Shown piece by piece: positions 2,917 through 15,541 of a stretch of 15,541 nt of DNA. A program made the translations under genes and the position numbers. Origin of the DNA: Okeania sp. (GTDB taxonomy: Bacteria > Cyanobacteriota > Cyanobacteriia > Cyanobacteriales > Microcoleaceae); NCBI RefSeq assembly GCF_035285525.1, contig NZ_JAYKGW010000250.1, positions 1 to 15,541 of the forward strand, written 5' to 3'. The notes under the pieces were generated by a model that searched no databases, was not told the origin of the DNA, and saw only the letters and a list, made by a program, of their open reading frames with translations. Every line of letters starts with the position of its first letter. Within the stretch, counting starts at the first letter, position 1.

Positions 2917-3050
2917 GCATATTCTCTGGATTGCCCATTGCCCATTCCCTATTCCCAGATTATAAAGAAATGTTAACTCTTTTGACTTTAACCAACTTAT
3001 TCAAGGTAGAATGAACCGCAAAATTATTGGTAATGTAGTAATTTTTGGTG

Positions 3051-3767
3051 ATGAAAATCAAACATTATTTATCTCCTATACTTGTTGCCATAGGATTATT
3101 AGTAGTTAAAACTCCTGCCTATGCTCAGGGGATACCTGATGCCACCTTGCTGTCCTTCTGTACAAGAGTTACAGACAATTTCAAACGTGCTGTAGATGCT
3201 TATAGATTTAATATTAGTAATGGAGGTGTGAATATAACCATACCCTACGATTATGATTTAGGAATTAATGGGGATTATGGAACAATAGATACTGTAACTT
3301 TGAGAGAGCGAGAACTCGAAGAATATCTATATATAAATTGTGACCAAGAGCTGATAAATCATGGAAAAATAACAGTAACTCAGATAGAGTCTGACACTAA
3401 TGTAAAAGTAGCTGACGTTTTAGCTGAAATACGGAGTTATCAGAATAAAAACTATGGCGTTAGAGAACCGGAAATAGAAACTGGCAAAGTTGAAAAAGCA
3501 CAGAGAAACAATCAAAATCAATATCTGAGCCAGGCCGAGCCAGAAAAATCTAACCAATATAACATTTACAATAATTATGATTCAAACAGAGCTAAACTTG
3601 AGGCTGCAAAATTAGTAATAACTGAATGTAATTCTGCAACTTCAGCTCTGATCATTTTTCCTAGAGATGAAAAAATTTGTGTCCAGCCAATCGGACCATT
3701 AAAGGTAGGAAAACGCTATTACTTTAATCTAAATACTGGACAAATTGTGAAAATACGGCCTTGGTAA
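3051..3767 (+). CDS. Secreted hypothetical protein with a C-terminal Cys-x16-Cys...GKRYYFN module shared with the next gene
   Basis: ATG at 3051; the ORF track starts two codons earlier at TTG 3045. Signal peptide MKIKHYLSPILVAIGLLVVKTPAYA|QG. A Q/N-rich linker (QRNNQNQYLSQAEPEKSNQYNIYNNYDSN) follows. The C-terminal 47 aa ECNSATSALIIFPRDEKICVQPIGPLKVGKRYYFNLNTGQIVKIRPW align with the C-terminus of the 3994..5016 product. I recognise no family for the N-terminal part. Confidence 0.75.
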   Translation: MKIKHYLSPILVAIGLLVVKTPAYAQGIPDATLLSFCTRVTDNFKRAVDAYRFNISNGGVNITIPYDYDLGINGDYGTIDTVTLRERELEEYLYINCDQELINHGKITVTQIESDTNVKVADVLAEIRSYQNKNYGVREPEIETGKVEKAQRNNQNQYLSQAEPEKSNQYNIYNNYDSNRAKLEAAKLVITECNSATSALIIFPRDEKICVQPIGPLKVGKRYYFNLNTGQIVKIRPW

Positions 3768-3993: not shown

Positions 3994-5016
3994 ATGAAAA
4001 CCAAATTCATAGTTCTATTTTTAGCCACAATTTTGGCAACTATTGGTTTGACAACTGCCACACAAAATCAAGTTAATGCCAATAGTATTTTTAGCTCTGA
4101 ACTTTTCGATGATTTTGAAGAAGATGGAGCCAAACCATCTCAGAATCCTGCACCGAAACCTCAGCGTACTCCAAATAATGGAGGTGTGATACGAGTACCT
4201 GTTAGTAGTTCATCTCAGCCTCAGTCAGCTCCAAATAATGGAGGTGTGATACGAGTACCAGCTAGTAGTTCATCTCAACCTCAGTCAGCTCCAAATAATG
4301 GAGGTGTGATACGAGTACCAGCTAGTAGTTCATCTCAACCCACTCGGAATAATCAACCTGTAGCTCAACCAACCCAAAAGGCTGCTACTGGAACTACTCA
4401 AGCCAAAGTTGCTTGCGTTTCCCAGGGAAATGGTAATTATGCAACTGTTGTGCGGAAAGCTGAAGGCGAAACAGTCTTAATCAGTTGGAAGAATCGCAAT
4501 CATGGCTCCGAATATACACCTGAAAAAAGATGCAACATGGTAACAGAGAAATTACAAAGCTTTATTTCTGCAAATGGTAACGACATAGGGAACCTATTAT
4601 TAACAACAGGTTATGTTAAAGGTAGCCCTGTAATTTGTGTTGTTAACGAGGGTCCCCTTGGTTGTAACTCTACGAATCAATTATTAACTCTCAGCGGAGA
4701 AAATGCAGAAGATCCTGCTAAAACATTAGCTCAATTTTTAAACCTAGCTGAGGGCAACATTTCTGGTAATCCCATCCAAGAAAAAAAGGGTAAAACAGTT
4801 GTATCATTCAATACTGCTGTAGATAACTCCTTTGGCAAATCTGGCTCCATTTTAGAAGGTGGAGGTTTGAACATTGCTGCTTGCGATCCAACCAAGACTT
4901 CCTTAATTGTGTTTGAGAATAGTAAGGTATGTGTAGAAACCAAAGAACCATTAAAAGCAGGCAAACGCTATTACTTTAATTCTGCTACAGGTAAAATTCA
5001 AAGACAACCTATTTAG
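3994..5016 (+). CDS. Secreted COP23-domain protein with three 20-aa tandem repeats and the shared C-terminal GKRYYFN module
   Basis: RBS TAGGAG lies 7 nt upstream of the ATG. Signal peptide MKTKFIVLFLATILATIGLTTATQNQVNA. The peptide APNNGGVIRVPASSSSQPQS occurs 3 times. The central region VACVSQGNGNYATVVRKAEGETVLISWKNRNHGSEYTPEKRCNMVTEKLQSF...TGYVKGSPVICVVNEGPLGCNSTNQLLTLSGENAEDPAKTLAQFL matches my recollection of the COP23 (circadian oscillating protein) family pattern: Cys, then W...TPE.RC, then ViC...C...LlfTL. C-terminus: ACDPTKTSLIVFENSKVCVETKEPLKAGKRYYFNSATGKIQRQPI. Confidence 0.85.
   Translation: MKTKFIVLFLATILATIGLTTATQNQVNANSIFSSELFDDFEEDGAKPSQNPAPKPQRTPNNGGVIRVPVSSSSQPQSAPNNGGVIRVPASSSSQPQSAPNNGGVIRVPASSSSQPTRNNQPVAQPTQKAATGTTQAKVACVSQGNGNYATVVRKAEGETVLISWKNRNHGSEYTPEKRCNMVTEKLQSFISANGNDIGNLLLTTGYVKGSPVICVVNEGPLGCNSTNQLLTLSGENAEDPAKTLAQFLNLAEGNISGNPIQEKKGKTVVSFNTAVDNSFGKSGSILEGGGLNIAACDPTKTSLIVFENSKVCVETKEPLKAGKRYYFNSATGKIQRQPI
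4168..4340 (+). repeat. Near-perfect in-frame 60-bp tandem repeat (about 2.9 copies) inside the COP23-domain gene
   Basis: Copies begin at 4168, 4228 and 4288. Copies 2 and 3 are identical until the sequence diverges after 4340. Copy 1 differs at a few positions. Each encodes (T/A)PNNGGVIRVP(V/A)SSSSQPQS. Confidence 0.95.
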
Positions 5017-5285: not shown

Positions 5286-6152
5286 TTGCAACTGGTGTAC
5301 TATAAATTGACTATTCAAACTTATACTGCTATTTTATTCTTCTTCAATTCTATCAGTGGCAATATAGATATCAAAATACCTACAGCGTTAAAAGTACAAG
5401 AAAATAACCTCCTTCTTCCTTCTTCCTCTAGCAAAAACTTAGCTTTGCCTTGTCCATCTGTCCCAGATATTGCCAGAGAAATTACCGTCCGCATATTAAC
5501 CAGTCAAGGAGGAGGATCGGGTGTAATTATTGCCAGACAAGGAGACAGATACACTGTTTTGACTAATCATCATGTTGTCATTGACAGTAGGGAAAATCAG
5601 TATACTGTCATCACTACTGATGGTCTTGAACATCCTGCTGAATGGTTGCAACCAACTGAGTATAGTGATTTAGATTTAGCTTTAGTTCAGTTTACCACCA
5701 GTAATATTTACCGAGTTGCAGAAATCGGAAATTCCAAAAATTTATCCGTAAATGATATCATTTATGCAACTGGTTTTCCTAGCTGGAATAGAACCAGTCC
5801 TAATGATATTGAGAATACCAGAGATTGGGGTTTAAGAGCTTATCGGTTTACAGAAGGTACAGTGGGAATGATTCTACCCAAGTCTTTACAACGTGGATAT
5901 CAATTAGGCTATAGTAATAGCTTGGCAAATGGTATGAGTGGGGGTCCGGTTCTCGATCGCGATGGTCGTCTAGTTGGTATTAATGGTAAAAGTAAGTATC
6001 CTTTAGCTGGTATTCGAGCTTTTACATTCATTGATGGTACAAAACCATCAGTTGAACTATTCCAGCAAATGCAAACTTTAAGTTGGGGAATTCCTATTAC
6101 CACAATTCAACGTTCTCTTTTTCCCAAAAAATTTAACCCAGTTCAAGAATAA
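5286..6152 (+). CDS. Trypsin-like (S1/chymotrypsin-fold, Trypsin_2-type) serine protease, probably secreted
   Basis: The catalytic triad motifs occur in the expected order: GSGVIIARQGDRYTVLTNHHVV (His), DLDLALVQF (Asp), GMSGGPVLDRDGRLVGING (Ser). The start is uncertain. There is no ATG, so the candidates are TTG 5286, GTG 5295 and TTG 5307. The N-terminus is hydrophobic (TYTAILFFFNSISG). Confidence 0.85.
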   Translation: MQLVYYKLTIQTYTAILFFFNSISGNIDIKIPTALKVQENNLLLPSSSSKNLALPCPSVPDIAREITVRILTSQGGGSGVIIARQGDRYTVLTNHHVVIDSRENQYTVITTDGLEHPAEWLQPTEYSDLDLALVQFTTSNIYRVAEIGNSKNLSVNDIIYATGFPSWNRTSPNDIENTRDWGLRAYRFTEGTVGMILPKSLQRGYQLGYSNSLANGMSGGPVLDRDGRLVGINGKSKYPLAGIRAFTFIDGTKPSVELFQQMQTLSWGIPITTIQRSLFPKKFNPVQE

Positions 6153-6166
6153 CAAAAAAACCAACA

Positions 6167-7162
6167 ATGATTTTATTCAAGCAATTTTCTATAAGTGTTA
6201 TCTGTTTCTTAACAGTCCTCAGAATTTCTATTCCCAGTGTATTAGCTTTAACAAAAGAACAAGTCGATGCGATCGCCTGGCAAGTATCTGTAATTTACGG
6301 ACCTGGTTTAACGAAGGAACAAATTAAATCTATTGACAACGGAGATTACAGTGTAGTCAAGGGTTGGCAAAATGGTAGCGGCGTAATTATTGGTCGTCAG
6401 GGTGAAACTTACTATGTTCTTTCTGCACTGCACGTTGTCGCCGACTCCAGAGGTGGAACCTTTGCTCTAGCAACTCCAGATCGAGAAGTTCATGTTATTG
6501 ATGATGAGAAAACTAAATCAAATATTATTCCCTTGGGAAAACCCCAGGGTATGGGAGAATCTATTGACGGACTTGATCTCGTTTTAATTAAGTTTAATAG
6601 TAAAGAAAAATATGAGGTCGCTCCCATTGCTATTTCAGAGAATTTACAAGCAGGTTCCCCTATTTATGTCAATGGCTGGCCAAACCCTGAAGATTTAAGT
6701 GATACAAAGCGCGAGCGTCGATTTGAGGAAGGTAAAGTTAGTTTTGTTGCCAAGTCTCCTTCATCAAATGGTGGATATAGTTTTCTTTATAGCAGTTGGA
6801 CTGCTTCTGGAATGAGTGGTGGCGCTATCTTTAATTCTGAGGGTCAGGTAATAGGGATTCATGGTAGGGGGCGTGCTAGAGGTGATGTTTATTGTGTTAA
6901 TTTTGAGTTTAGTCAGAATAATAGCTGCGGAATGCAGATATTTCACTTTCTGAGTCACAATGACGCAAAAACGATTAATTCTGCTTTGAATACTGCTATT
7001 CCAGTAGATCCGAAAATTGTCGAAAATGGCATAAAAGGAGAAAGTAAAACAGATAAAATTGATAATATTTATAAAACTTTTGCAGTCGAATTTGTGGACT
7101 CAGGAACGAGAAGAAAACCTTCTGGAGGTTGTGACTTTTTATTGATAGATGACTGTGAATAG
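6167..7162 (+). CDS. Trypsin-like (S1/chymotrypsin-fold) serine protease, secreted; paralogue of the upstream gene with a C-terminal extension
   Basis: It starts 14 nt after the previous stop. Signal peptide MILFKQFSISVICFLTVLRISIPSVLA. Triad motifs: GSGVIIGRQGETYYVLSALHVV (His), GLDLVLIKF (Asp), GMSGGAIFNSEGQVIGIHGRG (Ser). A tail of about 80 aa ends ...PSGGCDFLLIDDCE. Confidence 0.88.
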   Translation: MILFKQFSISVICFLTVLRISIPSVLALTKEQVDAIAWQVSVIYGPGLTKEQIKSIDNGDYSVVKGWQNGSGVIIGRQGETYYVLSALHVVADSRGGTFALATPDREVHVIDDEKTKSNIIPLGKPQGMGESIDGLDLVLIKFNSKEKYEVAPIAISENLQAGSPIYVNGWPNPEDLSDTKRERRFEEGKVSFVAKSPSSNGGYSFLYSSWTASGMSGGAIFNSEGQVIGIHGRGRARGDVYCVNFEFSQNNSCGMQIFHFLSHNDAKTINSALNTAIPVDPKIVENGIKGESKTDKIDNIYKTFAVEFVDSGTRRKPSGGCDFLLIDDCE

Positions 7163-7269
7163 ACATCTTCCTAATACTGTTTTCACAAAGCTTGTAGGGG
7201 TTGACGATTAGACATCTCCAAAAATAAAAAATTAAATCAATTATCGCACAGAAATCATCTATTCTTTTC

Positions 7270-7297
7270 CCCGACTCCCGACTCCCTACTCCTGACT
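7270..7297. repeat. STRR-like heptamer array (CCCGACT/CCCTACT/CCTGACT, 4 units)
   Basis: Read directly. It is flanked by the inverted 11-mers TAGACATCTCC (7212-7222) and GGAGATGTCTA (7310-7320). The reverse complement GGGAGTAGGGAGTCG recurs at 11084-11098. Confidence 0.8.
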
Positions 7298-7371
7298 CCC
7301 TCTTTTCTGGAGATGTCTATTGACGATCTGGTTTCCTGTCGTCGATAGGAACGACAGTTAAACCGGATTTT

Positions 7372-7491
7372 ATCAGGACTAAAGCCATGAACGCTATTAT
7401 TAGGTTGTGTTTTCGGCGCTTGAGGCGACATGAAAAGCGTACTTCGTAACGCACCGACACACTATCTATAGTACCTTTGCATAAGTCCTGA
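7372..7491. mobile_element. MITE-like element, ATCAGGACTnAnGC terminal-inverted-repeat family (degenerate copy)
   Basis: The left end ATCAGGACTAAAGC (7372-7385) and right end GCATAAGTCCTGA (7479-7491) are imperfect inverted repeats. The interior contains GCGACATGAAAAGC, which is shared with the 2829 and 11293 hairpin units. Confidence 0.5.
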
Positions 7492-7591
7492 CCAATTTGA
7501 AAAAATAATGTTACAAATAGTTTCAAACTTTAGATGTCGAATAATTTGCTGAAGTTATTGAAGCATCAAAGTTTTGAGCTATAAAATCATA

Positions 7592-7741
7592 ATCAGGACT
7601 TACGCATAATCGACGAGTTTTGGTCATTTGAGATTGCTATCCTGACGGACTGCAACCCATTCATGTCGCGACTCGAAACGCTGTCGCTGGCGCTGCGAGT
7701 CGCGCCATGACAGAAATGCGTTGTGTTGCGTAAGTCCTGAT
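7592..7741. mobile_element. 150-bp MITE-like element with perfect 15-bp terminal inverted repeats
   Basis: ATCAGGACTTACGCA (7592-7606) is the exact reverse complement of TGCGTAAGTCCTGAT (7727-7741). An internal second hairpin pairs CATGTCGCGACTCG with CGAGTCGCGCCATG (1 mismatch). No transposase is present. The 69-aa ORF 7593..7802 lies over this element. Confidence 0.65.
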
Positions 7742-7931
7742 CAGGCATTAATTTTGAATGCATGAATTCTATTCCGTGAAACGGTAGAAAACACTCTACC
7801 AATAGAGTTCATGCTTCTCACAATGGATGAGGATGGTGAGGTACACTTAACACCTACTGCAGTTCAGCCTTCCTTTGCTGTAACATCCTGGAAGATTGTG
7901 TTAATAAAATTACTAAATAAAATTTTGTACC

Positions 7932-8642
7932 TCACGCGCCTCCAAAATTGCTATAAGTTTTATGAGTATTCAAACAATATTCAATCCACACCTGTTTAAT
8001 TATATTTTCACCCGCTTCAGATAAGAAGAAATTGCGCCGCATCTCTTCTAGTCCTAATTCAATAAACTCAGCAAGTTCTTTTTCTGATAAAGGCCAAGGA
8101 GGACCATCAGGTAGAGAATTATAATCCCGTATTCGAGTAATCACTAACAGTGTACCACCATTTGCCACTAAAGGAGCAATACAATTGATAACTTGCGATC
8201 GCATCTCTATTGGTAAAGCTTGAATAGTCCGGGACTCTACCACCAAGTCAAATTTACGATACCATCCAGAATCTAATTCTAAAAGATCGGCAACTAAATA
8301 ATTAACTGAAGAATCAGGAAATCTTTTTTGACACCAGGCGATCGCCTGAGTCGAAATATCAAAAGCTGTCACCTGAAAACCCAAATTTGCTAAAGCTTCT
8401 GCATCATCACCCAAACCACACCCGATGACTAAAGCGGTATGACCTTTTCCTTGCGGTTGAGAAATATCTAACCATTCTTGTAGATAAGGATGTGTGGTTA
8501 ATCGCGCCCAAGGTATTTTTGTAGCATCGCCCTCCGCTTCAGAATACAAAATATCAAACCATGCAGTGGGATTGGTTTTTTGTGATTCGGTTGCTAACTT
8601 CTTTACTTTTTCTTGAATAGCTTCTGGTTGTTTTTCCAACAT
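7932..8642 (-). CDS. Class I SAM-dependent methyltransferase (thiopurine/halide S-methyltransferase-like)
   Basis: Motif I and post-I: ALVIGCGLGDDAEALANLGFQVTAFDIS. The N-terminal W...PW...P.L pattern (WFDILYSEAEGDATKIPWARLTTHPYLQEWL) resembles the TPMT family. Later motifs are FDLVVESRTIQAL and GGTLLVIT. The substrate cannot be inferred. Confidence 0.8.
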   Translation of the reverse strand: MLEKQPEAIQEKVKKLATESQKTNPTAWFDILYSEAEGDATKIPWARLTTHPYLQEWLDISQPQGKGHTALVIGCGLGDDAEALANLGFQVTAFDISTQAIAWCQKRFPDSSVNYLVADLLELDSGWYRKFDLVVESRTIQALPIEMRSQVINCIAPLVANGGTLLVITRIRDYNSLPDGPPWPLSEKELAEFIELGLEEMRRNFFLSEAGENIIKQVWIEYCLNTHKTYSNFGGA

Positions 8643-8998
8643 TATGCTTTTGTCTAATTTTTCAGTCTTAATTTTACTTCAGTGGAGCAAAAAAACTTAT
8701 GTTAAGAAAAGCCACTAACTTTAACATTTCCACATATAATATTAGTGGTTTTGCGGAAATCTTGATAATAATAATTAACACTTTTATTCTGACTTCTAAC
8801 TTACTGTAAGTACCCAATTTGTAACCTTTCCTACCTGACTCCTAGTAATAGCCTAGTCATTTGTTACAAATATTTACCAAATTAGTGCGATAAAAAACTT
8901 AAAAAATGTACTTTTAATCACCAGATTGGGTATTATATATGATAATATAACATACGAATAATTACGCACAATATAATATAAAGTTGAAAATTTGTCCC

Positions 8999-9196
8999 AT
9001 GCTTCAAGTTAATTTACTCCCTGGTGCAATCAATGAGATTATGGCTTCTGTAGCCAACAGTTCTCTCCTTACCCAATCAGATCGTTATGGCCTCATGGCT
9101 GCTATATTAGATGAATCAATTACAGAAGAAGAACGCCGTTCTGTGGACAGGTTGTTACGTTCTGTACTTCGAGGCAGAATAAAAGTATTAAGCTGA
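8999..9196 (+). CDS. Small conserved cyanobacterial hypothetical protein (about 65 aa)
   Basis: The ORF is open from TTG 8984, with ATG candidates at 8999 and 9041. The sequence ...SDRYGLMAAILDESITEEERRSVDRLLRSVLRGRIKV resembles small proteins I recall from other cyanobacterial genomes. I recognise no functional motif. The start is uncertain. Confidence 0.5.
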   Translation: MLQVNLLPGAINEIMASVANSSLLTQSDRYGLMAAILDESITEEERRSVDRLLRSVLRGRIKVLS

Positions 9197-9841
9197 TTTT
9201 AGAGAATTTTGTAGTGTAAATTATTGGTCTTTTTCTGTAAGATAAACAACTGCCAGTTTAGGTACAACAGCCAAAATAATTAACTTCCTGATAGATAAAA
9301 ATTGAATACTTGTTTATTTGTAGAAATTTAGATGCTTTCCTGATACAGTTCCATAATAAAAATAGGTTTGGTCAATCAACCTATGGAACCTAAATTGGAA
9401 AAATATAAAATTATTTTCAGTTAATACAAAGACTGATACACAAAATGAAATTAGACACAATTTATAGGGGTTAACTACTGTTAACCCCTATTGCATTTAA
9501 TAGTTGAGTTGAGTTGGCTGAAAAAAACTTATGGTGGTTCGTGTGGTTCGTGTGGGGAGAGGAAAAGTAGGAAAAATTTATACCTTTGCGACTAATAACT
9601 GTCACGCAACAGACTTTTAATCTCGGTAACTATTGTAGAAAGAATAATTCTTCCTTCAAAAGTAGGAAAACAGGAGGTTTGGGTTGGGAATTAGTGATCG
9701 CTCAACTAATTGTTCATACTTAATAATGGTGATATCCTTGTTACCAGAATTGTTGGTAAAGGTTAAACTTTGCAGGTAAAACTACCGTTTTTGGGATTGA
9801 TGCTTAATATTTTCTGCGTTCTAAGTGTATAAGCAAAATTA

Positions 9842-9938
9842 ATCAGGACTTAAGCAACTGCAAGGTATTTTCGTCCGATACGACCGCAGGGAAGCAATCT
9901 CAAACCCCTATTTTTCGTACCTCATGCGCAAGTCCTAT
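9842..9938. mobile_element. Third, shorter member of the ATCAGGACTTAnGCA inverted-repeat family
   Basis: The left end ATCAGGACTTAAGCA (9842-9856) and right end TGCGCAAGTCCT (9925-9936) are inverted repeats with 2 mismatches. Confidence 0.5.
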
Positions 9939-9960
9939 TAATTACATATTTTTTGGACTT

Positions 9961-10086
9961 CCTACTCTCCCTTCCCTACTCTCCCTTCCCTATTCCCTAT
10001 TCCCTACTCTCCCTTCTCTATTCCCTACTCTCCCTTCCCTATTCCCTATTCCCTACTCTCCCTTCCCTATTCCCTGTTCCCTCTTT
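9961..10086. repeat. STRR-like heptamer array, 18 units (CCTACTC / TCCCTTC / CCTATTC)
   Basis: Read directly: 126 bp of uninterrupted 7-bp periodicity, pyrimidine-only apart from single A or G positions. It lies immediately downstream (minus sense) of the glycosyltransferase stop at 10116. Confidence 0.95.
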
Positions 10087-10115
10087 CAACTAAGAAATTA
10101 ATTTTGCACGACTAC

Positions 10116-11006
10116 TTATATAAAACGAATAAACCAACGCTCCTTAAAACTTACACCAGCAAATGCTTCATATTCTACCAAACTTCTCACATTTCCCAAC
10201 CCATAAATACCAAAATCTTTAGTTGCAGTTTCCATTCCCAAAATCTGACGAAAACGAGACTCAGACACCTGATTTTGCACCCACCAATCTTTATGATCTT
10301 CCCAATGTACAACCCGTTTTTTACCAGTATTATAAAAATGCCAACAAACACTCAAATTAGGATGATAAATATCCCATCCTCTTGTCCAAGCTTTGGCAGC
10401 AAATAAAACCTCTTCTCCAGTAAAATAAATATCAGGATCGTAGGGTACTTCTTCAATAATTTTTCCCTCAGCAAAAATAAATCCAGCAGCAACAAAAGCT
10501 CCTGGTTGGGGAGTGCTGCATTTACTCAGATCGCCTACTCCTTTTAATGTTAAAGTACCAGCAGTTCCAAACTTACTTGCTTCTAACCGACTTGGTGTTT
10601 TCCCAACTAATTTTCTAGGAGGTGTGTAAGCAGGGGGATAGGTACTCAACAGCGGTTTGTCACTGGGGCAGATTTTCAGCATTTTAATGAGTTCCACATC
10701 CCACCCAGGCAAAAACCTGATATGAGCATCTATCTGTAGAGTATATCTTTCTTGTCGCCATAATTTTTGAACCAAAGACCTCGCCCAACCTACACCACAA
10801 GATTGAGAAGCTGTAACCGCAATAATTCGACAATTTTTTATATCCTTAAGTTGATTAATATAGTTCATTTCTTCATCTGTACCATACTGCCAACAAATAC
10901 CAAAACTGAGAAGTTCAGGATGAGTAGCATGAGCGATCGCTTCTTTAACAGTAGGCACTAACTCTAAATCGCGATAGGCAACAATTTGAATAAAAATGCT
11001 ATCCAT
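10116..11006 (-). CDS. GT-A-type glycosyltransferase, GlcNAc-transferase-like family
   Basis: The N-terminus IFIQIVAYRDLELVPTVKEAIAHATHPELLSFGICWQ matches the 'IFVsIasYRDpeC..Tl' opening I recall for the Glycosyltransferase (GlcNAc) family. A DxH metal motif occurs in TLQIDAHIRF. The start and stop are clean. Confidence 0.7.
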   Translation of the reverse strand: MDSIFIQIVAYRDLELVPTVKEAIAHATHPELLSFGICWQYGTDEEMNYINQLKDIKNCRIIAVTASQSCGVGWARSLVQKLWRQERYTLQIDAHIRFLPGWDVELIKMLKICPSDKPLLSTYPPAYTPPRKLVGKTPSRLEASKFGTAGTLTLKGVGDLSKCSTPQPGAFVAAGFIFAEGKIIEEVPYDPDIYFTGEEVLFAAKAWTRGWDIYHPNLSVCWHFYNTGKKRVVHWEDHKDWWVQNQVSESRFRQILGMETATKDFGIYGLGNVRSLVEYEAFAGVSFKERWFIRFI

Positions 11007-11101
11007 AAAATATTTCTTGAGTAATGTATCTAAATTCTCAAATACTGCTGATCTTCACAAACATCCGTAAAATTATCAAGGCAGGGAGTAGGGAGTCGTT
11101 T

Positions 11102-11497: not shown

Positions 11498-13105
11498 CTA
11501 ATTTCCAGGCAAAATTTCTGGCAATCCTACCTTTTTTAATTCCACAAATTTACCCTGAAAATCTACAGCTTGCTCTTCTCCAACTCGCCTTGCTTCTGCC
11601 AACTCTCGACGAATTTCTGCTCGTTCCATTTTGTCAGAAATTCCACCTAATATATAGATAAATAATCTCATTGCTAAATTTCTACCAGCTACGGACATTC
11701 GCTTCCGATTAAAATCATATAAAACTCCATACCAAATTGAGTCAGGAAATTCTATTCCACTTAAACCACCATCTACATCATACTTATTTAATTTATCAAA
11801 AACCTCCTCTAAAGAAAAGCCTTTTTTATATATTAAATTTCCTATAGCTTCCGCAAAAGCAATTTGTCCGACGGGGCGAAATAAAACATGACCTTCTCCT
11901 GGTTTTGTCTCAAAACTAAATCTTCTTAATTCTGGAGTTTCAGTACCATTTTCTAATCTTGAATAACTAGGTAATTTAGCTAAATAATTCCAAAATTCCA
12001 TAAATTCTTTCACCCCCTTTTCTAATTCTTCTTCTTCAGGACGCATGGGAATTAAACCTTTATCTGAGGGTTTCCAATAGGGATAATGAAGTTTTAAATA
12101 TCTTTCGGACATTTCTTGTAATGCTTGCAGAGTTGTTAGAACGGTAGATTTAGCTGCTACGGTTGCACTATCCCAATTTACTCTGGGATTTCTATCATCT
12201 TTATCTTTTAAAATAGGATGATAAATTGCTATTTTTCTGGCGACAATAGCAAATCCATCATCCTCATTTAATAATGCTAATTGCCCTTTACTTAGTTTTA
12301 CTGCGGTTAAATTTACATGAGCAAAAACTGACCTTACTCTTCGTCGCGCTTGTTCTCTTGTTTCGCCTTTTACTACTGCTGGAATAAATTCTATGCCTAT
12401 TTGTTCGTATGCTAATTTTTGGATTTCTGGTAATTCAAGATGATTAATTTCGGTTAAATCATCAATAGTAATTGGTTCGCCTACTGGTTTCTTTTGTTTG
12501 TTGTATCTTGGTAATCTACCAGTTTTTATTAGTTCCATTAATCCTTGGATTCCCATCAGTCGATGTTGACCGTCTAAGGCGAATACTGCTACTTCTAAAC
12601 GTAGGTCTAATAATCCTACTTTTCCTTCTGAATCTAATGGTAAAAAGTCAGTTGCGGATTTATTTGCTTCACCTTTTTTATTCCATTCTTCTGCTTTGGG
12701 ATTATCTACCCAACTAGGGCTGATTACTGCTAATACTGCGGGAAATTTATGGGATTTTCTGGTTGCTAAATATAGGGTTAATGGAGTTTGACGAGACCAG
12801 TCTAGAGGTCGTTGTTGAATTTCGTCTATTGTTTCTCCATCTCGAATTATGTTGTCGGTTTCTATGTCAAATTTTTGCCGAAATAATGGTAGTTGGGAAG
12901 CAAAACGTACACGACTATCTAACCATTCTAATGTGACGGAACCGATGTAAGCTTCTGTGTTTCCCATCATGGTTTTTTGTACTAATAATCTATCGTCTTT
13001 ACCTATATGTTTGTTTAAGAGAATGGCGATCGCTTCTCTTTCTCGATTATCATTTTCTAAAATTTCTTTTGCTATTTCTGATGTGGTTTTATTGGCGTTT
13101 TTCAT
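11498..13105 (-). CDS. dndB: DGQHR-domain protein, DndB-like (DNA phosphorothioation-associated), unusually long at 535 aa
   Basis: It contains the eponymous motif VAVFALDGQHRLMGIQGL. It also has an upstream QQRPLDWSR...LYL element and a downstream VFAHVNLTAVKLSKGQLALLNEDDGFAIVARKI element, both typical of the DGQHR/DndB (ParB-like fold) family. It is divergent from a dndC-containing transcription unit. Confidence 0.8.
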   Translation of the reverse strand: MKNANKTTSEIAKEILENDNREREAIAILLNKHIGKDDRLLVQKTMMGNTEAYIGSVTLEWLDSRVRFASQLPLFRQKFDIETDNIIRDGETIDEIQQRPLDWSRQTPLTLYLATRKSHKFPAVLAVISPSWVDNPKAEEWNKKGEANKSATDFLPLDSEGKVGLLDLRLEVAVFALDGQHRLMGIQGLMELIKTGRLPRYNKQKKPVGEPITIDDLTEINHLELPEIQKLAYEQIGIEFIPAVVKGETREQARRRVRSVFAHVNLTAVKLSKGQLALLNEDDGFAIVARKIAIYHPILKDKDDRNPRVNWDSATVAAKSTVLTTLQALQEMSERYLKLHYPYWKPSDKGLIPMRPEEEELEKGVKEFMEFWNYLAKLPSYSRLENGTETPELRRFSFETKPGEGHVLFRPVGQIAFAEAIGNLIYKKGFSLEEVFDKLNKYDVDGGLSGIEFPDSIWYGVLYDFNRKRMSVAGRNLAMRLFIYILGGISDKMERAEIRRELAEARRVGEEQAVDFQGKFVELKKVGLPEILPGN

Positions 13106-13764
13106 GGCTGATTCTGGAAAATATTTTTAACGACTTTTGAAAATTAATAAATATATAAATTTTTGTTAACAAAAGTTTTTAAAAATTGTTTAGTTAGTAT
13201 AATTGTTAATTGTAGGTTATTTTTTATCATATACTATTTATTATGTCAAGACTAAGTAATGAAAAATGAGGGATGAATATTGATATCTTTTTTTAGCATC
13301 AAAGTAATAAATATTGAGCAATCAATAGTATAAGCATTTAGCAGTCAGCTATTTATTTTAGTTTGAGAGAAAAAGCTTTATTAGTTGAAGTAAATTGAAT
13401 TTTACTATCAAAGTATTTCCTGGGGAATGCGCTCGTATTCAGTATTTAGCTTTGAAACTTAATAACTTACTAAAGTTAGCTAATAGTCTTTTTCTTTCCT
13501 GCGGAATCTAGGCAAACATAAATTTTAATTGTCTTTAGAGAATAATTTATCCTTTCTGTTAATAACTCAAAGCTGTATTAACAGAGTTCCTCTGAAAGAA
13601 GCTAGGTAATTAATTTTATAATTTTCAAAAGGAGGAATCAGAATGGTTATGGTAAATTTAATTTTAGTAGTTATTTAAGATTAAATCTGGCATACATATT
13701 CAGTTAATCTGCTGATTTATGACAAATAAATAGTGAAATATAGATGTTTTGCCTAGTGTTATAA

Positions 13765-14749
13765 ATGAGTAAAAATCAAGAATCAAACAGGGAAAAAAAT
13801 TTAGCATACTACTGTCAACGTTTTAGCGAACTTAAGACAAATAAAGATAAAAAATTAGGTACTGCCAAACACAAACCTATTTTACTTTTATCTGTAATTG
13901 ACTTAATTTCGGAAGGTTTAATTCAAAATAATCAGATAACTGTTTCAGAAGAATTGATTAATACTTTCAATAAAAATTGGAAAATACTATATTCTGGTTC
14001 TTATAAAAGTGGTTTGTACTATCCCTTTTATCATTTGCAGAATGACGGTTTTTGGAATGTAAAATTCAACTCTGACTTTGTTAATACTTTGCCAGTAAAG
14101 AAAAATTACAAAAGAACACCGACCAGAATCACTAAAGAAACTTAAAGAAGTAGTTGACTATGGCAGCTTTGATGTGGAATTATTTGAACTACTGGCAGAT
14201 AAAAATTATAGAAAAGAATTAACAGATGTACTAATTGCAACTTGGTTCTCAGTCAACCAAAAAGATACTCAAAAACTCATTACAATTAATCAAAAATTTC
14301 ATGGAAATGATAAGCAAGAAGAACAACAAAAACATCCTAAATTATATTTCAGAAAATCTGTACTAAGAGATGCTGTTTTTCGTAAAGCAGTTGTGCATAG
14401 CTATAACTATAAATGTGCTTTTTGTGGAATCAAAGTTACTATGTCAATTGAGCAAAATATTGTAGATGGAGCGCATATAAAACCATTTGCTAAATTTTAT
14501 GACAATAGAATAGATAACGGCATATCACTTTGTAAAAATCATCATTGGGCATTCGATAAAGGTTTATTTACAATCTCTGATGATGATGATTATAAAATTA
14601 TCGTTTCCAATAACTTTCAAGAAGAATCACCAAATTCTAAACCAATGAAAGAATTTGATGGTAATCGACTTTGGTTGCCTGGAGAAAAAAAATTTTTTCC
14701 TAGAATAGAAGCCTTAAAATGGCATCACAATAATGTATTTATATCATAA
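13765..14749 (+). pseudogene. HNH endonuclease (HNH_2-type) with an N-terminal HKP...YYPF..LQNDGFW DNA-reader domain (candidate sulfur-binding, ScoMcrA-like), interrupted by a +1 frameshift
   Basis: Two adjacent ORFs make up this gene: 13765..14145 (126 aa, reader domain) and 14174..14749 (191 aa, HNH). The HNH motif is CAFCGIKV...VDGAHIKPF...NGISLCKNHHWAFDKGLFTI. The second frame is already open from 14099 and reads RKITKEHRPESLKKLKEVVDYGSFDVELFELL..., running straight into the listed GTG start. Removing one A from the A5 run at 14101-14105 fuses both ORFs into one protein of about 327 aa. Confidence 0.75.
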
Positions 14750-14793
14750 TCATAGAAAATAAATTTGACTAATATTTGAGGATATTTATAAAT

Positions 14794-15541
14794 ATGAAAG
14801 GTATACAACAATCTTTATTTCCAAACAGAACCGCTGCCGAATTAGTAGAAGACATAAAAAAGTTAACTACAGAAATTCAAGAACTATATTGTTTAGATTC
14901 TATTCCCTGGGTTATTGGATATTCAGGCGGTAAAGATAGCACTGCAACATTGCAACTAATATGGAATGCTATAGCCGGACTTCCCGAAAAAAAACGAGCT
15001 AAAACTATTCACGTTATTACTACAGATACATTAGTAGAAAATCCTATCGTTTCGGCTTGGGTAACTAACTCTTTAAAGTTAATGGAAGAAGCTGCAAAAA
15101 ATCAGAAACTACCCATAGAATGTCATTTATTACGACCAGAAGTTAAACAAACATACTGGGTAGGACTACTTGGTAAAGGATACCCAGCCCCACGCCATAG
15201 ATTTCGCTGGTGTACTACCCGTTTAAAAATCGATCCTTCTAATCTTTTTATTCGTAATGTTGTCAGAAATAATGGAGAAACAATAGTTGTTTTAGGAACT
15301 CGTAAAGCCGAAAGTTCTAACCGTGCAGCAATAATGAATAAACGAGAAATTGGGAGAACTCGAAACCATTTGAGTCCTCATCCTAGTCTAATTAATTCTT
15401 TACTTTATACCCCTATTGAAGACTGGCGAACTGATGAAGTTTGGCTATATTTAATGCAGTGGGAAAATCCTTGGGGAAATAGTAATCAAGATTTACTAGC
15501 AATGTATCGAGGTGCAACGGAAGATAATGAATGTCCGTTAG
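14794..15541 (+). CDS. dndC: DNA phosphorothioation sulfurtransferase DndC (PP-loop ATP pyrophosphatase / PAPS-reductase-like), N-terminal 249 codons; continues beyond the window
   Basis: I translated this by hand because it is not in the ORF track (there is no stop in the window): MKGIQQSLFPNRTAAELVEDIKKLTTEIQELYCLDSIPWVIGYSGGKDSTATLQLIWNAIAGL...HVITTDTLVENPIV...YWVGLLGKGYPAPRHRFRWCTTRLKIDPSN...VVLGTRKAESSNRAA...YTPIEDWRTDEVWLYL...NPWGNSNQDLLAMYRGATEDNECPL. The SGGKDS PP-loop and the GYPAP..FRWCT.RLKI.P signature are classic DndC. The ATG at 14794 lies 44 nt after the HNH stop, with GAGGA 12 nt upstream. Confidence 0.92.
   Translation, partial: MKGIQQSLFPNRTAAELVEDIKKLTTEIQELYCLDSIPWVIGYSGGKDSTATLQLIWNAIAGLPEKKRAKTIHVITTDTLVENPIVSAWVTNSLKLMEEAAKNQKLPIECHLLRPEVKQTYWVGLLGKGYPAPRHRFRWCTTRLKIDPSNLFIRNVVRNNGETIVVLGTRKAESSNRAAIMNKREIGRTRNHLSPHPSLINSLLYTPIEDWRTDEVWLYLMQWENPWGNSNQDLLAMYRGATEDNECPL

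Follow-up and report, generated by a model that had tools for sequence, protein, structure and literature searches.

A frameshifted phosphorothioate-reader nuclease gene between dndB and dndC of Okeania sp., and its linkage to dnd genes in cyanobacteria

Introduction

Nucleases in which a sulfur-binding domain (SBD) is joined to an HNH domain, such as SprMcrA, EcoWI and ScoMcrA, are type IV restriction enzymes directed against phosphorothioate (PT)-modified DNA. Lutz et al. expect the genes of these SBD-HNH enzymes to avoid dnd clusters, which encode the PT writer; fewer than 3.6 per cent lie nearby, and these were treated as outliers (PMC7461809). Krishnan et al. (NAR 2024) described nucleases of Dnd loci that combine wHTH(SBD), SAD/SRA and HNH domains in 698 taxa, and proposed them as alternative restriction components (PMC10853773). 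SspE and DndI are precedents for PT-sensing nucleases (PMC9646914, PMC11662687), and according to Jian et al. Cyanobacteria lack PT restriction components (PMC8569181). Here we analyse a stretch of 15,541 bp, the entire contig NZ_JAYKGW010000250.1 of Okeania sp. (the window), in which an SBD-HNH gene interrupted by one extra base lies between dndB and dndC.

The locus is probably a recently inactivated allele of an SBD-HNH PT-reader nuclease, the gene of which is normally a co-inherited member of the dnd cluster in cyanobacteria. The evidence comes from the reading frames and domains of the window gene, from its neighbourhood in other cyanobacteria, and from independent lesions in its closest relatives.

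Results

One gene split by one extra base

The first open reading frame (ORF1; 126 amino acids) ends in ...NTLPVKKNYKRTPTRITKET*, and frame 2 is open from 14099, where it reads RKITKEHRPESLKKLKEVVDYGSFDVELFELL..., through the HNH motif to the stop at 14749. The two are halves of one gene, parted by one extra base. Removal of one A from the AAAAA run (A5; table 1) restores a single product of 327 amino acids, hereafter the repaired protein. The frames are fused by any one-base deletion within 14096-14143, and alignment with intact homologues (..LP(K/G)K(K/T)VTK(E/Q)HRP(K/R)SLK..; ..LPKKKVTKEHRP..) narrows the extra base to about 14097-14109. In a DNA alignment, four close relatives are one base shorter at the site, with CCA-AAAAAGAAAGTTACAAAG against CCAGTAAAGAAAAATTACAAAAG in the window. 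Their AAAGTT stands against AAAAATT in the window, which corresponds to a GTT-to-ATT change together with one additional A.

The frameshift falls at residue 113/114 of the repaired protein. Both halves match a single family end to end (NCBIfam NF045808), and one alignment to a solved SBD structure runs across the break; the adjacency of the two frames is therefore not a matter of chance. A 1081-bp contig of an independent Logan assembly of SRR19514071 is 100 per cent identical to window positions 13339-14419, A5 run included, so the frameshift is not an artefact of the assembler. The one-nucleotide frameshift in an A5 run and the repaired length of about 327 residues, both proposed in the initial annotation of this DNA, are thus confirmed by the frames, by the alignments with homologues and relatives, and by the Logan contig. 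At only two of 79 alignment columns conserved at 97 per cent or more does the repaired protein differ from the family, and both differences are shared across its clade; the frameshift is therefore recent. The window allele is a recent pseudogene, and probably a real one.

The extra A splits the SBD in mid-domain, at the L4 DNA-contact loop, and the window allele is unable to encode the full-length enzyme. ORF1 is a truncated SBD without its C-terminal helices, expected not to fold, and the other half has an HNH domain with neither an ATG start nor a reader domain. On these grounds the gene is non-functional, with dndB and dndC intact. Two functional split proteins were also considered and are ruled out, because the break interrupts the SBD fold itself instead of falling between domains, and because the HNH half lacks an ATG.

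In GenBank the HNH half alone is annotated, from a GTG start (14174-14749), as a 191-residue 'HNH endonuclease' (P0011). The 279-residue product of L001:10001-10840 (P0003) is likewise publicly annotated as an ordinary 'HNH endonuclease'. Such labels on fragments mask their pseudogene status. A look-up of P0011 returned no record, and that of ORF1 returned one.

Reader and nuclease domains of the repaired protein

Domain and fold searches were conducted with the repaired protein. By sequence and by predicted fold, its N-terminal domain is an SBD. Residues 13-170, on both sides of the frameshift, match SBDHga of Hahella Hga (PDB 8H0L) with E=4.8e-16 (phmmer). The alignment with NF045808, "phosphorothioated DNA-binding restriction endonuclease", is full-length (residues 19-325 against model positions 6-283 of 284); its score of 127.4 bits is below the curated cut-off of 180, which indicates a distinct subfamily. 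An AlphaFold (AF2) model built on 42 homologues has a mean pLDDT of 70, with values mostly between 77 and 95 in the SBD. The top 14 PDB matches of this model in Foldseek are all SBDs: SBDHga (8H0L, TM 0.77), ScoMcrA and SprMcrA (5ZMM/5ZMN, 7CCD/7CC9/7CCJ). In precomputed tables, PF26340 is the family DNA-SBD_ScoMcrA; the Pfam set that we scanned held no SBD model and gave no match to the N-terminal half.

Residues lining the sulfur cavity have been published for ScoMcrA (H116, R117, Y164 and P165; PMC6224610) and SBDHga (H25, K26, L75, P76 and H79; PMC10602919). Alignment to 8H0L places H36/K37, Y86/P87 and H90 of the repaired protein at these positions (table 1). All 42 homologues have P38, P87 and F88, and nearly all have K37; most cyanobacterial members have Y instead of the cavity His. 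The initial annotation had described His-Arg and Tyr-Pro motifs ordered as in ScoMcrA, and the order was right. Its placement of the frameshift at predicted basic DNA-contact residues also holds, for the break lies in that stretch of the SBD fold which corresponds to the L4 base-contact loop. By spacing it coincides with the S187RGRR191 loop of ScoMcrA, and in the SBDHga alignment it is just upstream of the L4 serines. The L4 loop is 10 residues longer in the subfamily of the window protein.

Two linker helices (residues 168-212 of the AF2 model) lead to the C-terminal half, which matches Pfam HNH_2 (E=1.6e-12) and TagI (6GHS, E=8e-6). The family shows no variation at C217, C220, H237, N251, H259 and H260. 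The intact enzyme would bind PT through the conserved cavity and use the HNH domain to cut DNA. There is no SRA domain in the Pfam, PDB sequence or fold searches, no NTPase domain beyond weak partial PADLOC matches (e.g. PtuA, E=1e-3), and no match to DndF, DndG or DndH in PADLOC or Pfam.

Linkage to dnd genes in cyanobacteria

Scanning a single genome for each GTDB species gave 584 relatives; the 80 with the best matches, all cyanobacterial, were analysed as loci. Every one of these 80 loci has flanking dnd genes. The gene dndC is adjacent in 79, and in the remaining one the contig ends before dndC. Unbroken copies of the SBD-HNH gene in Oscillatoriales-type and Microcystis loci precede dndC by a gap of 12-97 bp. 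Nostocales copies are convergent with dndB, after which come dndC and dndD. The SBD-HNH/dndC pair of Microcystis is isolated among housekeeping genes such as gyrA, with neither dndB nor dndD within 10 kb; the link between the nuclease and dndC is thus the tightest in the cluster.

For further comparison we define the Okeania/Dapis clade as the ten genomes, window included, with a DndB at least 86 per cent identical to that of the window. Of the 71 copies outside this clade, 70 have an open frame, and dN/dS (the ratio of non-synonymous to synonymous divergence) is 0.16-0.21. The gene is therefore functional and constrained alongside the writer. From these sequence comparisons, the PT-reading nuclease appears as a conserved and co-inherited member of the dnd cluster in cyanobacteria, normally located a short way ahead of dndC and in the same orientation.

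Several other features of these clusters were recorded. In Microcystis ichthyoblabe (L018:9980-12587) the SBD-HNH gene and dndC are 4 nt apart, and they are also paired in L026, L028, L047, L053 and L057. Uma2-family putative endonuclease ORFs (PADLOC PDC-S17 and PDC-S03) adjoin the cluster of Nostoc sp. C117 (L024) at 8619-9242 and 14418-15038, one of them between dndC and dndD. Many Nostocales loci encode a second DndD-like ATPase (about 24 per cent identity; positions ~5900-8100), 2-4 kb upstream of the SBD-HNH gene. No canonical DndE is recognized in the cyanobacterial clusters examined; downstream of dndD in L003 and L024, neither Pfam nor PADLOC recognizes one. Directly after dndD, L003:15237-15560 holds an ORF of 107 amino acids without Pfam or PADLOC match, which may be a divergent DndE. 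A few apparent lesions are present outside the clade: a stop in dndB of L025 and a truncation in that of L036, a partial-coverage dndC match in L020, a dndC split over three frames in L069, a stop in dndD of L017, and an internal stop in SBD-HNH of Nostoc sp. KVJ20 (L048).

Repeated loss in the Okeania/Dapis clade

An ORF-breaking lesion is present in seven of the ten clade genomes, each time a different one (table 1). An eighth copy, in Okeania hirsuta PAB10Feb10-1 (L008, ~10625), has an open frame in which the invariant catalytic His of DGAHIKP is changed to Gln (CAT to CAG), and this allele is probably catalytically dead. The only two clade copies that look intact, L003 and L006, lie beside unbroken dnd genes. 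In the same ten loci there is no stop or truncation in dndB (10/10), dndC (10/10) or dndD (8/8). The excess of broken SBD-HNH genes in the clade (7/10 against 1/71 outside) is significant (Fisher p=2.7e-7), and if lesion events are spread evenly over codons, all eight would fall in SBD-HNH by chance with a probability of about 8e-7. The insertion in L011 may be a miniature inverted-repeat transposable element, judging solely by its 12-bp inverted ends; there are no further copies of it among 82 loci.

Within the clade, synonymous divergence (dS) is of similar size in the nuclease gene, dndB and dndC. The genes are therefore co-inherited partners, their coexistence is normal and dnd is not a later arrival. 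In dN/dS the nuclease gene ranges over 0.21-0.47 and the dnd genes over 0.06-0.23, which suggests relaxed selection on the nuclease in this clade.

Two reader subtypes occur in the clade. One has an H-K cavity and the L4 loop longer by 10 residues (window, L003, L004, L005 and L009), and the other a Y-K cavity and a short loop (compared: L006, L007, L008, L011 and L071). Between the subtypes the SBD halves are 59-65 per cent identical, the HNH halves 81-89 per cent and DndB about 90 per cent, a contrast that suggests that the reader domain has diversified or been exchanged.

Table 1. Features of the window around the SBD-HNH gene, and lesions of this gene in the Okeania/Dapis clade.
Sequence	Feature	Coordinates	Strand	Evidence or remark
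Window	dndB (DGQHR-domain protein), divergent, intact	11498..13105	-	
Window	intergenic region dndB / SBD-HNH, presumed promoter region	13106..13764		promoter-like matches not above chance
Window	ORF1: first 113 SBD residues, then 13 out-of-frame residues and stop	13765..14145	+	exact product also on Logan contig
Window	H36-K37-P38 codons: sulfur-cavity wall and salt-bridge pair (ScoMcrA H116-R117; SBDHga H25-K26)	13870..13878	+	alignment; roles from PMC6224610, PMC10602919
Window	Y86-P87-F88-Y89-H90 codons: sulfur-cavity lid and floor (ScoMcrA Y164-P165; SBDHga L75-P76, H79)	14020..14034	+	alignment
Window	rest of SBD (helices past L4 loop), helical linker, HNH domain	14099..14749	+	HNH_2 and TagI 6GHS matches (see text)
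Window	A5 run with +1 frameshift	14101..14105	+	relatives have one base fewer
Window	HNH_2 core C217..C220..DGAH237IKP..N251G..CKNH259H260W..D264	14414..14575	+	catalytic and Cys positions all kept
Window	dndC, 5' part, runs off contig end	14794..15541	+	PADLOC DndC E=3e-115; TIGR03183
Window (Okeania sp.)	lesion: +1 A in A-run			
Dapis sp. BLCC M172	lesions: +1 C at codon ~41; TGG to TGA at W319			also in Logan assembly
Okeania SIO2B3	lesion: GAA to TAA, residue 138 (E138*)			
Okeania SIO2F4	lesion: TAT to TAG, Y215*			
Microcoleaceae MFD12174	lesion: 5-nt deletion near residue 310			
Okeania SIO3B5 (L011)	lesion: ~122-nt insertion near residue 308	10915-11036		perfect 12-bp inverted ends GGGTGCATCTCA...TGAGATGCACCC
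Microcoleaceae MO_207.B10 (L071)	lesion: 134-nt insertion within HNH motif, between ISL and CKNHHW	~10780-10915		

Neighbourhood in the window

The initial annotation had placed the gene within the writer operon beside dndC, and it indeed lies between dndB and dndC, the latter beginning 44 bp past the SBD-HNH stop. A promoter and terminator scan of positions 13000-15000 found promoter-like sites not above chance and no terminator; the missing terminator before dndC is weak support for co-transcription. An Rfam scan of the whole window gave no match.

Elsewhere in the window, two ORFs (3045-3767 and 3994-5016) encode predicted secreted proteins with a common C-terminal motif, ..P(L/I)..(L/P)K(V/A)GKRYYFN..TG.I.., and the second protein also carries three tandem copies of NNGGVIRVP(V/A)SSSSQP. 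Between the genes for a TPMT-like methyltransferase and a GlcNAc-transferase, a stretch of about 1.5 kb (8643-10115) has no ORF of 100 amino acids or more; there is likewise no called gene in the equivalent stretch of the syntenic Dapis locus.

Discussion

Origin of the interrupted gene

An error at the level of the reads, with a gene truly intact (A4) in the organism, is an explanation that we consider unlikely. In its favour, the lesion is a single base within a homopolymer, the conserved residues of the repaired protein are all intact, the source is an environmental assembly of Okeania sp., and a scan of JGI metagenomes for the A4 or the A5 allele had 0 matches. Sequencing error was also one of the options of the initial annotation. 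Against it, the A5 run is reproduced in the contig of the independent Logan assembly, the other long ORFs of the window are unbroken, and in six related genomes this gene has lesions that homopolymer errors cannot explain (nonsense codons, insertions and a 5-nt deletion). Even less credible is a programmed +1 recoding event, or a phase-variable switch at the A-run, that would yield some full-length protein; we hold this to be extremely improbable. A +1 slip of tRNA-Lys on AAA-A (14101-14104) would indeed give ...VKKITKEH..., as in the homologues, but the run has only five A, the relatives read AAAAAGAAAGTT in frame and so share no conserved recoding signal, and the longer A8/T6 tract at 14685-14698 remains in frame. 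The homopolymer phase switch of the initial annotation meets the same difficulties: the site is not conserved and the lesions of the relatives are irreversible.

The initial annotation also expected an active PT nuclease beside dndC to be autotoxic, and listed among its explanations an inactivation that had allowed the acquisition of dnd; under this scenario the loss was either required for that acquisition or made it possible. Characterized SBD-HNH enzymes do restrict dnd-carrying DNA (PMC6224610, PMC7461809), and the repeated loss in Okeania and Dapis could mean a fitness cost. As a general rule, however, autotoxicity is contradicted by the open, constrained copies that coexist with dnd in 70 of the 71 other cyanobacterial species representatives; the two clade copies without a lesion have unbroken dnd neighbours, and the synonymous divergence of the nuclease is close to that of dndB and dndC, as befits co-inheritance. 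We therefore regard this scenario as very unlikely for the window. The break is a recent local loss and not a prerequisite for carrying the writer.

We thus return to a recently inactivated nuclease allele in a cluster to which the gene normally belongs. Most sampled Okeania/Dapis genomes have broken the nuclease independently and kept the writer, a pattern similar to the decay of a restriction gene leaving an orphan modification system. The loss would reflect relaxed or negative selection: it could be due to relaxed constraint or to a cost of the nuclease. Several observations weigh against this interpretation. The contig is metagenome-derived, its lesion is an indel of one base in a homopolymer and the gene is otherwise pristine; the Logan contig was possibly built from the same reads as the assembly. 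The dN/dS of the nuclease in the clade exceeds the family baseline of about 0.2 by only a modest margin. Moreover, sampling began from the nuclease side only.

Possible function of the intact enzyme

Since the nuclease is co-inherited with the writer, it would be a functional partner of dnd, most simply its nuclease arm, a role already suggested in general for the wHTH+SAD+HNH proteins of Dnd loci (PMC10853773). The intact enzyme may use PT on host DNA to tell self from non-self and would then not be a free-standing type IV cutter of host-type PT sites. The characterized SBD-HNH enzymes cut PT DNA, which is a poor fit with such a self-protective role. Of the options in the initial annotation, a regulatory reader or one of non-self PT comes closest for the intact family; for the window allele itself, recent loss of function fits best.

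More tentatively, and with somewhat less than an even chance in our judgement, SBD-HNH could be the restriction arm so far missing from the ancestral dnd system of cyanobacteria: a minimal, NTPase-free PT-sensing nuclease for which PT made by its own cluster either spares the host while unmodified invaders are attacked, or triggers suicide. If true, this proposal would contradict both the avoidance of cognate dnd clusters by SBD-HNH genes (PMC7461809) and the absence of PT restriction components from Cyanobacteria (PMC8569181). Okeania and Dapis would then represent a natural experiment in which the arm was lost at least seven times independently and the writer was kept.

Taken alone, the locus is an ordinary pseudogene in a known family of enzymes, and its interest comes mainly from the comparative pattern. 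The wider result is that a PT-reader nuclease is a constrained and conserved partner of the PT writer among the cyanobacteria sampled (Nostocales, Oscillatoriales, Microcystis and Crocosphaera), and that one marine clade has repeatedly shed it. This bears on the restriction component of "solitary" dnd systems, which lack dndFGH, and on how a PT reader nuclease coexists with its writer. Intact and naturally broken alleles in close relatives provide experimental handles, as does a tractable carrier in the Anabaena/Nostoc PCC 7120 group (P0057).

Comparison with known systems

The repaired protein has the domain order of SprMcrA, EcoWI and ScoMcrA (SBD, then HNH_2), although ScoMcrA carries an extra SRA domain. 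It shares with these type IV enzymes the cavity residues (H-K/R, Y-P and H/A), the SBD fold and the full-length match to NF045808. It differs in its NF045808 score below the cut-off, in the Y that replaces the cavity His in most cyanobacterial members and, for the window copy, in the lack of an uninterrupted frame. The flanking dnd genes at all the loci analysed, with dndC almost always adjacent, are also unlike the expectation for type IV enzymes, which are held to be uncoupled from a cognate writer (PMC7461809).

The nucleases of Krishnan et al. are similar in that an SBD/wHTH reader is fused to HNH in a Dnd neighbourhood, in genomes mostly without DndFGH. Unlike them, the cyanobacterial form has no SAD/SRA domain (327 amino acids), and whereas they are encoded immediately downstream of the modification genes, the cyanobacterial gene is upstream of dndC or, in Nostocales, convergent with dndB. 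Neither the main text of PMC10853773 nor the text portions of the supplements of PMC10853773 and PMC7461809 mention cyanobacteria. Our literature searches found no specific description of a cyanobacterial SBD-HNH nuclease embedded in dnd. The locus is a broken member of a known enzyme family; the literature searched describes neither the cyanobacterial two-domain form ahead of dndC nor its decay in one clade.

SspE of the Ssp system and DndI of IscS-DndBCDE-DndI resemble the cyanobacterial nuclease in being genetically coupled to a PT writer, with a proposed logic in which PT on the host distinguishes self from non-self. The likeness lies in the proposed mode of action only and not in homology. 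The cyanobacterial protein has no GTPase or ATPase domain coupling PT sensing to release or activation, and its sensor is unrelated (the SBD cavity, against the Y25 hydrophobic region of DndI or the N-terminal domain of SspE).

Lastly, the Okeania/Dapis loci are similar to the orphan modification systems of classical restriction–modification, in which the writer is intact and constrained and the linked nuclease gathers independent disabling mutations. They are unlike these orphans in that the nuclease binds the modification rather than being blocked by it.

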